A stretch of 11,683 nt of DNA. Source: a virus (lineage: Duplodnaviria > Heunggongvirae > Uroviricota > Caudoviricetes). Positions 7,938 through 9,925 of the stretch are shown here, piece after piece. Made by a program: the position numbers and the translations under genes. The notes beneath the pieces were generated by a model that made no database searches, was not told the DNA's origin, and worked only from the letters and a program-made list of their open reading frames with translations. Every line of letters starts with the position of its first letter. Positions within the stretch are counted from its first letter, which is position 1. Location of the stretch: the IMG/VR virus record IMGVR_UViG_2663762839_000001, positions 1 to 11,683 of that record; one strand, 5' to 3'.

Positions 7938-9925
7938 TAACCCACCCTCACCTGATTACTTCGCATGACCTGAGCATTTGCAGACTGTTGCCGACGTGCA
8001 ACCTCATTACCGACAGCGTGCGGATCTCCGCCACCGTAAATGTGGTAAGTATTTTGCTGGTTAACCTCTGTCATTTTGCCACTAATTCCCGCCACGGCAG
8101 CCTTATTAATCAGCTCTCGAGAATAGATATTTCTTCCATTTTCATGCTGGATAATGCTGCTCATCAATGCTGACATGGTTTGCGGATCGCTCATATTCAG
8201 GGCAGCCCGGGGATCCACTCCCAGTCGTTGCGATACAGCCCTGATATACGCAGTTGTGTTGTTATTATCAGACGCAGGTGCCCAGGTAGAGATAATTTTC
8301 TCCACACTGTTTATTCCCCGTCCGGCGTACAGCATTAACTGACGAGCAAGAGCCCGTAATCCATCAAAAGCAGTTTCAAATCTGGCAAATCGCCCGCCCG
8401 GGCGTTCAAGAGAAGCCCCTGCCTGACCAGCAAAATTAAGGTTTCCCGGATTGTTATTCCGTTCTCCTCGTTTCGTAGCCTGTGCATATTGTTCCGGCTC
8501 ATCATCACCAAACCAGCCGCGTACCGTCCGGCCCACACTGCGGGGATCGAATCCCCAGTGCTCTTTAATCCAGTCGGCAGTACTGTTAGCGCTGTCTGTA
8601 ACCATCGGCATCGCTGACGGATTTTCGCTGCCCTGATTAAGTATCTGTTTGCCGATGCTGACGGCATCAGCCCAGCGGCCATCTTTGATAGCGTTGAGCA
8701 GGTCGGCGATCATGTTCAGCATTTTGCTGAATTCGCCCATCTGGTCGATGAAGTTGCTGAAATCCCACTTCAGGGACCATGATTTGGGGTCAATATTGAG
8801 CAGTTTCGCCAGCGCTTTCGCCAGTTTATTAACAGACCCTTTCAGGTCACGAACCATCTTCAGCGCGGCATCGACCTCCGGCTTCCACTTGCCCCAGTCA
8901 ATCAGGCTGTCGCCGCCTTCCTTCCAGGTCTGATAGTCCTCCCACAGAAGGGCAATCCCCGCCGCCAGCGCGGTAATGAGGCCAACCGGCGACATCCAGA
9001 ACGTACTGTTCAGAATGCGCAGCGCAATCGTCAGCGCGCCAAACAGCGAGATGAGCTCCCGCGTTTGCTTATCCAGCGATTGCCACCAGGTGATGAGGCC
9101 TGATGTTCCTTCAATCAGTCTGAAGAACAGCCGCCCGATAATATCCCCGAGCGCCAGAATGCCTTTTATGGCTTTCGTCAGGGTCTGCTCGATACGCGGG
9201 AAGTTGTCCAGGATATGGCGGCGCAGAGTGTCCAGCGAACCCGCAAGCCCACCCGCAAGATTAGAGCCGATTTTGTCACGGGCCATGCCTGCCATCGCGC
9301 CAAACTCACGCAGGGAGGTCATAAATTTGTTGGAGCTTCTGGCCGCCTCGTCAGCATTGAAGCCGATAGCTTTCGCCATTGCGCTGTACTGCCCGGAGAA
9401 ACCACCCACACCCCGGCGCATAGCCATCAGGGTATTTTCGTCAATGCCCAGCATCTGCGCATACTGGTTAGCCCGGTAATACGGCATGCTGCTGAGTTTC
9501 TGTCCAACGCCCGTAAAAATAGCGGCCATGTCACGCATGTTACCGCTGGCATCCCGTGTCTGTACCCCAAGACGATTCAGAAATCCCTCAGCCCCGGGGT
9601 TATTACGGATAAAACGGGCAAGGCTCTCCAGTGACCCGCGCGCAGCATCTGCACTGCCGCCAACCTGCGAAACCGCATAGCCAATAGACTGAATTCCCTG
9701 GACTGTCGCTCCAGTGCGCTGTGACGCCCAGTAAAGATTATCCAGGCCGGAGGCGATCTTAGCCGTGAAGGCCACCACGGACAGCGCAGCTCCTTCAACA
9801 GCCAGCCCCATTTTGATGACATTTGCAGTTGTACCGGCGAGGACAGAACCGAACTTTTTCGCTCCTGCATCATCCACACTGAAGCCAAGCGAGACGAGGA
9901 AATCTTTAATAGTTTCAGCGCTCAT
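7937..9925 (-). CDS. Phage tail tape measure protein, about 663 aa
   Basis: Size, position after a chaperone gene, alpha-helical N-terminal region, central hydrophobic Trp-rich segments and Gly-rich stretches. Start placed at ATG 9925-9923 (MSAETIK) with GGAGAGAGG upstream; the ORF track extends to a TTG at 9946. Confidence 0.8.
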   Translation of the reverse strand: MSAETIKDFLVSLGFSVDDAGAKKFGSVLAGTTANVIKMGLAVEGAALSVVAFTAKIASGLDNLYWASQRTGATVQGIQSIGYAVSQVGGSADAARGSLESLARFIRNNPGAEGFLNRLGVQTRDASGNMRDMAAIFTGVGQKLSSMPYYRANQYAQMLGIDENTLMAMRRGVGGFSGQYSAMAKAIGFNADEAARSSNKFMTSLREFGAMAGMARDKIGSNLAGGLAGSLDTLRRHILDNFPRIEQTLTKAIKGILALGDIIGRLFFRLIEGTSGLITWWQSLDKQTRELISLFGALTIALRILNSTFWMSPVGLITALAAGIALLWEDYQTWKEGGDSLIDWGKWKPEVDAALKMVRDLKGSVNKLAKALAKLLNIDPKSWSLKWDFSNFIDQMGEFSKMLNMIADLLNAIKDGRWADAVSIGKQILNQGSENPSAMPMVTDSANSTADWIKEHWGFDPRSVGRTVRGWFGDDEPEQYAQATKRGERNNNPGNLNFAGQAGASLERPGGRFARFETAFDGLRALARQLMLYAGRGINSVEKIISTWAPASDNNNTTAYIRAVSQRLGVDPRAALNMSDPQTMSALMSSIIQHENGRNIYSRELINKAAVAGISGKMTEVNQQNTYHIYGGGDPHAVGNEVARRQQSANAQVMRSNQVRVG

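Follow-up and report, generated by a model that had tools for sequence, protein, structure and literature searches.

We propose that residues ~481–616 of the tail tape measure protein (TMP) encoded by an E. coli prophage fragment in the 11,683-nt stretch of viral DNA analysed here (the window) are likely to form an all-helical, lysozyme-like peptidoglycan glycosidase of the type found in the endolysin of Hafnia phage Enc34, and to act at entry. Homology, predicted fold, conservation of the active site, equivalence of the slot to that of an SLT domain in related phages, and purifying selection were observed. Enzymatic activity of this TMP is what we infer from its sequence, and the bond specificity is probably that of an N-acetylglucosaminidase.

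The domain and its predicted active site

The domain (aa 481–616; 8078..8485, minus strand), recognized by homology to the Enc34 structure 7Q47, lies within the region 7940–8560, which comprises the last 207 codons of the TMP gene. The original prediction had described this region as a separate globular domain of some 200 residues at the C-terminus, following the hydrophobic core. The separate domain is borne out by a confident AlphaFold2 fold at aa 481–616 and by sharp recombination boundaries: block-mean pLDDT was 94–98 over aa 491–610 and 84 over aa 481–490, with low-confidence linkers on both sides; the region is neither of low complexity nor disordered. Its extent had been overestimated, as the folded part has only ~135 aa; it is also penultimate rather than C-terminal, a conserved 46-aa tape-measure tail coming after it. 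The order relative to the hydrophobic core held, but ~150 aa of helical tape-measure sequence lie in between.

The model has an all-helical fold resembling the lysozyme alpha lobe and can be superposed on 7Q47. A short beta-hairpin at aa ~504–516 appears in the prediction only; the same loop is strand-free in the Enc34 crystal. The C-terminal tail (aa 617–662; 7940..8077, minus strand; ...QQNTYHIYGGGDP...RRQQSANAQVMR...), with a helix predicted by AlphaFold2 at aa 635–661, belongs to the tape measure proper. Related tails, with a median length of 55 aa, come after the domain in 84 long proteins.

In phmmer searches against PDB the domain matched 7q47_A (E 5e-13, TMP aa 484–598) and 9vvp_L (E 2e-19, TMP aa 485–616); resemblance to other proteins at this level goes well beyond what chance would give. 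[quoted passage not shown] The C-terminal 207 aa had no match in Pfam (E<=0.1) or NCBIfam; neither library has a model for the domain, which explains why a canonical motif of a lysozyme, SLT enzyme or peptidase had not been seen, and their silence is a library gap, not evidence of absence.

The Enc34 paper describes the catalytic domain of endolysin ORF39 as all-helical and lysozyme-like (PDB 7Q47, CDD PHA02564), reports that ORF39deltaC was muralytic in turbidity assays and proposes Glu131, Tyr95 and Trp79 as active-site residues; Glu131 was assigned by structural superposition, with no mutagenesis described in the sections consulted (PMC8943055). In the phmmer alignment these three residues fall opposite Glu595, Tyr560 and Trp548 of the TMP, the chain index of 7Q47 being taken as the paper numbering + 1.

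The family signature present in the domain reads RNNNPGN ... (W/Y/F)AP ... Y ... HENG. RNNNPGN, at the domain start (aa 489–495; 8441..8461, minus strand), is invariant in an alignment of 80 sequences, while among 263 distinct sequences each of its positions is 95–99.6% conserved. Glu595 of HENG (8141..8143, minus strand), the predicted equivalent of catalytic Glu131, is shared by all 262 sequences. The predicted counterpart of Tyr95, Tyr560 (8246..8248, minus strand), is kept in 257 of 260 and is invariant in the 80-sequence alignment. Trp548 (8282..8284, minus strand), which would correspond to the substrate-positioning Trp79, stands in a column where 259 of 260 sequences have an aromatic residue (W 146, Y 98, F 15).

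The setting of the domain differs from that in the lysis enzymes. The Enc34 endolysin and M4Lys of Salmonella phage BSPM4 are ~26-kDa lysis-cassette proteins in which the domain is N-terminal and precedes a two-helix transmembrane domain; in the window it belongs to a virion tape measure of 662 aa, close to the C-end, with a hydrophilic tail of 46 aa and no hydrophobic segment after it, and is encoded in a tail module. A role as the endolysin of lysis was ruled out; the related Salmonella phage SEN34 has a separate cassette of holin, endolysin and spanin.

The tape measure gene and the state of this copy

The TMP gene (7937..9925, minus strand) encodes 662 aa plus a stop codon. It lies in the frame 7937–9946 (minus strand), whose translation includes exactly the peptide of the original prediction; the ATG at 9925 is, from sequence comparison, the most likely start and gives 662 aa as in RefSeq homologues, and both ends of the gene coincide with those of RefSeq WP_169057802.1 at locus L001. 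In a profile search the protein matched phrog_2276 over its full length (E 6.5e-282). The match to Pfam PhageMin_Tail at aa 53–156 is weak (22.1 bits, below the curated cut-off of 33.2), as is that to the NCBIfam model TIGR01760 (16 bits, below the curated cut-off of 28.8). Kyte–Doolittle averages in 19-aa windows reached 1.45–1.87 at aa 252–271, 291–310 and 307–329; these hydrophobic segments (aa 252–329; 8939..9172, minus strand) are candidate membrane-inserting helices.

The position of the gene is that of a tape measure. Upstream lies a tail assembly chaperone gene (TAC_15; 10103..10555; PF21822, E 2.4e-30); downstream are the genes of a Dit-like baseplate protein (7350..7937; PF21821, E 1.7e-33), the start of which overlaps the TMP stop codon, of a baseplate plug similar to Pam3 gp18 (7048..7350; PF22479, E 9.9e-25) and of a baseplate hub (5984..7045; phrog_196, E 5.9e-87, with a weak match to PF22759), all on the minus strand. 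SEN34 and E. coli prophages show the same order of chaperone, TMP, Dit-like protein, plug and hub.

Other open reading frames in 7940–8560 (plus strand, 7988–8173, 8154–8342 and 8451–8636; minus strand in another frame, 8335–8682) were rejected: all are short and lack independent support, and they fall within a gene that has strong homology and is under purifying selection. A scan of 7000–10200 for promoters and terminators yielded nothing that could be interpreted, with three promoter-like sites where 2.1 were expected and a scatter of weak hairpins.

We lean slightly towards regarding the gene in this particular genome as a relic, i.e. an intact reading frame in a prophage fragment unable to build a tail. 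Homology to intact prophages is confined to 5268–10930. The tail tube gene (10559..10900, minus strand) has lost its 5' end, its match to PF11681 beginning at profile position 35 of 144, while the intact gene encodes 146 aa at loci L001 and L004. The window has no genes for sheath, spike, wedge, fibre or head, and on either side of the prophage homology lies mobile DNA that is unrelated to it: a P4-type island, a chimeric TMP/DNA-circulation ORF, a lambdoid kil region and an IS3 end. None of 5,426 complete E. coli genomes contains at least 80% of the window. With the tail module incomplete in the window, this TMP copy may never enter a particle. On the other hand, the 662 codons form an unbroken frame and the domain has the same amino acid sequence as the copy in the intact SCU-301 prophage, so that any decay must be recent; moreover, the window is only 11.7 kb long, and other prophages of the same genome could use the TMP. 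The arrangement of the window may also be a misassembly. A relic in this genome is compatible with the mechanism that we propose for intact phages.

An SLT cassette in the same slot

In SEN34, in E. coli DX6 and in two metagenomic homologues (P0024 and P0026) a Pfam SLT domain occupies exactly this position of the TMP; the allele P0026 matched PF01464 with E 5.8e-24. The TMPs of SEN34 (a Brunovirus; YP_009191622.1) and of the second prophage of DX6 (WP_284564291.1) are orthologous to that of the window, with the same synteny and a conserved C-terminal tail, whereas at aa ~480–620 their cassette encodes a canonical lytic transglycosylase of SLT type, which has no sequence relationship to the Enc34-type domain. 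DNA identity between the window and SLT-type TMPs is 90–99% over most of aa 120–470, falls to ~14–36% across the cassette and is 77–80% over the last 30 codons. The TMP of the window has HENG at the place of TESGGN in the SLT alleles; its domain shows no profile match to SLT/GH23 (PF01464) and no catalytic E-S motif. The presence of an SLT domain in the same slot speaks strongly for a function in cutting the cell wall during entry.

Phage vB_EcoM-689R2 carries a near-identical domain on a TMP with a divergent mid-section, which points to mobility of the domain independent of the rest of the TMP. Among E. coli copies dN/dS was 0.04–0.15, and the domain is, by this measure, under purifying selection.

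A competitor to hydrolysis by a glucosaminidase is that the domain is itself a lytic transglycosylase which, like the SLT domain whose place it takes, splits MurNAc-GlcNAc bonds without hydrolysis and leaves 1,6-anhydro-MurNAc ends. We consider this unlikely, though there are points in its favour: the domain shares the slot of a true SLT domain, has one universally conserved acidic catalytic residue only, as in that class, and, according to the Enc34 paper, the Enc34 domain is distantly similar in structure to the GH23 enzymes gp144 and MltC (PMC8943055). Near-identical proteins are indeed named 'lytic transglycosylase' in RefSeq, a name that was probably mis-transferred. The same paper cites M4Lys as yielding glucosaminidase and endopeptidase products (PMC8943055).

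That the domain is catalytically inert, a structural plug or a peptidoglycan-binding module concerned with tail length or periplasmic docking of the TMP, is very improbable: the Enc34 authors were unable to obtain sugar-bound crystals (PMC8943055) and the low dN/dS would fit a constrained binding module as well as a constrained enzyme, yet all 262 sequences, 84 long TMP-like proteins among them, have the catalytic Glu, the Tyr and the aromatic residue are kept along with it, and the slot otherwise holds an SLT domain with an intact catalytic E-S motif.

Returning to the glycosidase reading, one could speculate that the Enc34-type domain and the SLT domain replace each other as cassettes in a single fixed slot of the tape measure, as well as at the N-terminus of T7-like gp16 proteins, and that their exchange is adaptive and not neutral, switching the bond cleavage between GlcNAc-MurNAc hydrolysis and lytic transglycosylation; we hold this to be rather improbable. 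If true, the swap would let a phage escape peptidoglycan modifications or periplasmic inhibitors directed at one enzyme class. The Enc34-type allele was counted in 255 E. coli genomes, against 2 with an SLT allele detectable by megablast, and ~70 of 328 TMP-positive genomes were assigned to neither allele; under adaptive exchange, the host envelope would have selected for this strong excess. The Enc34-type fold, being small and all-helical, might also have an advantage in ejected proteins as one that refolds readily once past a narrow channel. The occurrence of either domain in near-identical tape measures offers a natural experiment on bond specificity in wall penetration.

Proposed role at entry and spread of the family

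In an intact SEN34-like Brunovirus myovirus, the tail tube would contain three TMP chains whose C-terminal tails are held by the complex of hub, plug and tip; by analogy with the tip-binding C-terminal helix of the Pa193 TMP, aa 617–662 would serve as the anchor to the tail tip and hub. Upon sheath contraction the tip would be lost and the TMP would exit C-terminus first. The domain, probably folding only once released, would then cleave murein glycan strands locally, with Glu595 acting as the general acid and the sugar held in position by Tyr560 and Trp548, and the hydrophobic segments of the TMP would subsequently help to build a conduit across the inner membrane. Three copies of a folded 15-kDa domain may not fit in the lumen of the tail tube; folding is likely to follow ejection.

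[quoted passage not shown] The Pbunavirus tail (Pa193, E217) shares Pfam families with the window, namely the KPP10_Orf10/PhiTE tube and TAC_15, while the match of the window to the E217 gp41 hub family is below cut-off. In Pa193 the lytic domain of gp41 is internal (aa 491–582 of 858) and is described as a transglycosylase, with no report of an Enc34-type fold. The TMP of the window had no significant sequence match to TMP chains in PDB; beyond 7q47_A and 9vvp_L, the search with the whole TMP gave only marginal matches of aa 319–364 to RuBisCO large-subunit entries (E ~0.1), which were dismissed as chance.

The same domain family occurs on a protein ejected into the periplasm, the T7-like internal virion protein D of gp16 type (Gp29 of 9VVP; Kayfunavirus), where it is N-terminal on a podovirus core protein of ~1,300 aa rather than near the C-end of a myovirus TMP; a literature search for PDB 9VVP found no paper. 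At the N-terminal position of T7 gp16 there is reportedly an SLT domain (work of Moak and Molineux), which would mean that SLT and Enc34-type domains alternate there too. Tape measures with muralytic modules that are said to have experimental support include that of mycobacteriophage TM4, in which motif 3 aids entry, and pb2 of phage T5. Like the TMP of the window, these proteins have a peptidoglycan-degrading module embedded in the tape measure; they differ in having Rpf-like or peptidase motifs, siphovirus tails, and other hosts or positions in the protein.

A literature search for this domain within a tape measure protein found no paper discussing it. The arrangement is common, already half-annotated and not a new kind of system, and the assignment leaves the current understanding of tape measure proteins unchanged. 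Its main value is in annotation: it gives the tape measure a specific entry function, one open to testing. Small self-folding lysin modules of this sort could possibly be of use in enzybiotic engineering.

At E<=1e-3 the domain matched 10,053 cluster representatives, and the family was present in 741 of 50,697 phage records. It lies near the C-end of a long protein in 84 of the 144 representatives analysed among the top matches. Its members carry labels as varied as 'hypothetical', 'virion protein', 'capsid and scaffold protein', 'endolysin' and 'lytic transglycosylase'. Besides T7-like internal virion protein D, they include structural proteins of phiV10/E15, the NO16 virion protein GP11 and a T6SS effector.

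Tape measure gene and limits of its folded domain

The longest ORF over the region 7940-8560 detected by an ORF scan lies at 7937-9946 on the minus strand, and the peptide quoted in the original prediction was found verbatim in its translation. Starts of RefSeq homologues place the initiation codon at the ATG at 9925, which gives a product of 662 aa (MSAETIKD...VRVG). Along its entire length this product matches PHROGs family phrog_2276, ‘tail length tape measure protein’ (E 6.5e-282), and it has a weak Pfam match to PhageMin_Tail at aa 53-156; on this homology we characterized the product of 7937-9925(-) as a tail tape measure protein (TMP). 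Such an identity is consistent with the fit of the neighbouring tail genes, which encode a tail assembly chaperone (PF21822) and a tail tube protein (PF11681) upstream, and a Dit-like baseplate protein (PF21821), a Pam3-gp18-type plug (PF22479) and a baseplate hub (phrog_196, plus a weak match to E217 gp41) downstream. The gene set is that of a PB1/E217/KPP10-type myovirus tail.

In the interval from the chaperone gene to the TMP start, which it overlaps, we observed a short frame, 9915-~10079(-), corresponding to the RefSeq ‘DUF6889 family protein’, a homologue of 55 codons without an ATG. By analogy with other G/GT-type chaperones, the tail assembly chaperone may be extended into this frame by a frameshift.

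The structure prediction that had been proposed as a check was done with AlphaFold2 for aa 441-662, from an 80-sequence alignment, and produced a confident fold: block means of pLDDT were 94-98 over aa 491-610 and 84 for aa 481-490, with low values (about 56-63) at aa ~461-480 and ~611-630; a terminal helix at aa 635-661 was predicted with moderate confidence. We also compared the window TMP gene, in nucleotide identity and in protein alignment, with its counterparts in Salmonella phage SEN34 and the E. coli DX6 prophage. Nucleotide identity is 90-99% across most of aa ~120-470, drops to about 50% at aa ~471-486 and to about 14-36% from aa ~486 to ~600, then recovers (about 60% at aa ~615, 77-80% in the last 30 codons). 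Natural recombinants and the model thus set the same limits, and together they define a folded unit of about 135 aa, at aa 481-616 (8078-8485, minus strand). The existence of a separate globular domain near the TMP end was thereby confirmed; of the last ~200 residues originally assigned to it, however, only these 135 or so fold as a unit, and the domain is near the C-terminal end rather than at it, the final 46 residues (...VNQQNTYHIYGGGDPHAVGNEVARRQQSANAQVMRSNQVRVG) being part of the TMP backbone outside the folded domain.

An Enc34-type catalytic domain

We found no model matching the domain in Pfam-A or NCBIfam, which explains why no canonical lysozyme, SLT (lytic transglycosylase) or peptidase motif had been seen in the original prediction. 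In PHROGs the domain matches phrog_873 ‘endolysin’ (E 1.4e-49) and is also linked to phrog_7182 ‘tail injection transglycosylase’ and phrog_992 ‘head protein’. Two entries were matched among PDB sequences: the N-terminal domain of Gp29, a 1295-aa protein (9VVP; E 2e-19), and the catalytic domain of the Hafnia phage Enc34 endolysin (7Q47; E 5e-13). According to Cernooka et al. (PMC8943055), the Enc34 domain (CDD PHA02564) has an all-helical fold like the lysozyme alpha-lobe and lyses E. coli, P. aeruginosa and H. alvei with permeabilised outer membrane; Glu131 is the proposed catalytic residue, and Tyr95 and Trp79 take positions held by active-site residues in GH73 and GH23 enzymes (the PDB chain index is this numbering plus 1).

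These three residues align with window Glu595 (in HENG), Tyr560 (in NNNTTAY) and Trp548 (in STWAP), respectively. In a set of 263 distinct homologous sequences, the Glu595 equivalent is present in 262 of 262 homologues and that of Tyr560 in 257 of 260, while the Trp548 position is aromatic in 259 of 260; an RNNNPGN motif, N-terminal in the domain, is 95-99.6% conserved per position (263 sequences). The invariant columns were also seen in a separate alignment. By every criterion that could be applied, the domain is an Enc34-type (PHA02564) catalytic domain, and it falls outside Pfam SLT. The whole protein, in contrast to Enc34-type endolysins, has no C-terminal transmembrane domain and is encoded outside a lysis cassette. 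A role as the phage's lysis enzyme was rejected, as SEN34 has a separate holin, endolysin and spanin cassette.

Cassette exchange, proposed function and distribution

SEN34 (the type Brunovirus), E. coli DX6 and two metagenomic TMP homologues (P0024, P0026) carry a canonical SLT domain (PF01464, E 5.8e-24, TESGGN motif) instead of exactly this segment, the flanks of the cassette being nearly identical to those in the window TMP. Since two unrelated muralytic folds, SLT and Enc34-type, alternate in one TMP slot, there is strong circumstantial evidence that the job of the slot is cutting peptidoglycan. DX6 has, besides its SLT allele, a full-length match to the window TMP region and therefore at least two such TMP genes. 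The domain also moves independently of the TMP body: in Escherichia phage vB_EcoM-689R2 an amino-acid-identical domain, with three synonymous differences, is found on a TMP (2138-4123) with a strongly divergent middle third. Compared with 7937-9925, this gene is a mosaic of at least three blocks; DNA identity is 87-100% in most stretches of the N-terminal ~165 aa and of the C-terminal domain with its tail, and in the mid-section it declines progressively, being about 73% at aa ~166 and 23-40% over aa ~346-456. A parallel to the clean SLT/Enc34-type exchange was seen in T7-like gp16 proteins.

E. coli copies of the domain give dN/dS values of 0.04-0.15, based on small counts (7-10 synonymous versus 1-5 non-synonymous differences). 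The domain family turns up repeatedly on proteins that are brought in from the outside, among them T7-like ‘internal virion protein D’, structural proteins of phiV10/E15, a Stenotrophomonas T6SS effector and GP11, a virion protein of the non-tailed vibriophage NO16; the others come from JBD-type Pseudomonas phages and from small genomes such as NO16, the 16.5-kb Gluconobacter phage GC1 and a 5.5-kb virus record (‘P5-like structural protein’).

TMPs such as those of TM4, T5 and lambda fill the tube lumen and are the first to leave upon triggering; some muralytic modules that promote entry can be part of them. In the related Pbunavirus Pa193, three TMP C-terminal helices bundle with the tail tip, as seen by cryo-EM; its authors remarked on a putative transglycosylase domain inside the TMP and proposed TMP ejection, periplasmic refolding, peptidoglycan hydrolysis and channel formation. 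What is demonstrated for the window TMP domain is its homology, its predicted fold, the conservation of its active site, its behaviour as a cassette and the constraint on it. We propose that the TMP C-terminal helix is held by tip, hub and plug; that contraction would expel the TMP with its C-terminus leading; that the Enc34-type domain would then fold and, using Glu595 as general acid, make local cuts in the glycan strands; and that the hydrophobic stretches at aa 252-329 would afterwards join in a trans-envelope conduit. The specificity is putative: N-acetylglucosaminidase activity, preferred by the authors of the Enc34 paper (PMC8943055), conflicts with the RefSeq label ‘lytic transglycosylase’.

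That label is given to near-identical proteins in many genomes, with ‘hypothetical protein’ used in others and none named tape measure; the SLT-type allele is a ‘transglycosylase SLT domain-containing protein’ in RefSeq, and in SEN34 the curators' name for the protein is ‘tail length tape measure protein’. HMMER, run in full against 1.84 billion cluster representatives, detected 10 053 proteins at E<=1e-3 and 3881 at E<=1e-10. Among 144 representatives analysed out of the 150 best hits, 84 were at least 400 aa long with the domain near the C-end, followed by a tail with a median of 55 aa; 52 of these 84 had detectable homology to the N-terminal 250 aa of the window TMP. Their tails are of recurring types, ...Q.T.I.V.G..D...A..V...Q..VN..L.RN... 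or ...IG.I.V.TQATDA.GIA.DI.... The domain is encoded in 741 of 50 697 phage records, and the TMP is present in 328 of 5426 complete E. coli genomes; 255 of the 328 have the domain DNA at >=95% identity and only two have the SLT cassette by megablast.

No paper on an Enc34-type fold in a TMP was found in the literature searched. A TMP with a virion-associated lysin module is nevertheless an already known kind of arrangement, and databases already contain many proteins of the Enc34-type architecture, with loose annotations as muralytic. What remains mildly interesting in the finding is the clean swap between SLT and Enc34-type cassettes.

State of this copy and the rest of the window

Homology of the window to intact prophages is limited to 5268-10930, and the flanks of this tail fragment are unrelated mobile DNA. 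The tube gene, 10559-10930(-), is cut at its 5′ end, where prophage homology ends (10930): its ORF has 113 aa versus 146 aa in intact prophages (L001, L004), and the Pfam match begins at profile position 35. The window lacks genes for sheath, spike, wedge, fibre and head. The TMP gene is intact, yet possibly a recent relic; alternatively, the region may have been rearranged or misassembled.

The window as a whole is a patchwork of mobile-element pieces, with junctions near 4117-4139, 5263-5268, 10930 and ~11421: a P4-family primase/SSB/pRiA4b-ORF3 island (1-4117; 99.6% identical to several E. coli chromosomes), the Brunovirus-like tail fragment (5268-10930) and a lambdoid kil region (10931-~11421) followed by an IS3-family end. 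None of the 5426 complete E. coli genomes covers >=80% of the window. Between the island and the tail fragment lies a chimeric 374-aa ORF, 4139-5263(-), with residues 1-128 matching the middle of another tape measure family (phrog_17727) and residues 223-374 matching the C-terminal part of a Mu-type DNA-circulation/baseplate hub protein (phrog_17109, phrog_184); these matches suggest that the ORF arose when a deletion fused parts of a second, unrelated prophage tail module.

A 233-aa ORF, 1952-2653(-), with no Pfam match at E<=0.01, has a HEAGH motif (HExxH, zinc-metalloprotease-like). Two small proteins, of 113 aa (5639-5980(-)) and 116 aa (1605-1955(-)), both have signal-peptide-like N-termini and a CGG(F/Y)T motif, and are weakly similar to each other (29% over 45 aa, pairwise E 6e-4); the former, a member of the unknown-function family phrog_3443, directly follows the hub gene in a moron-like position, and the latter is inside the P4-type island.
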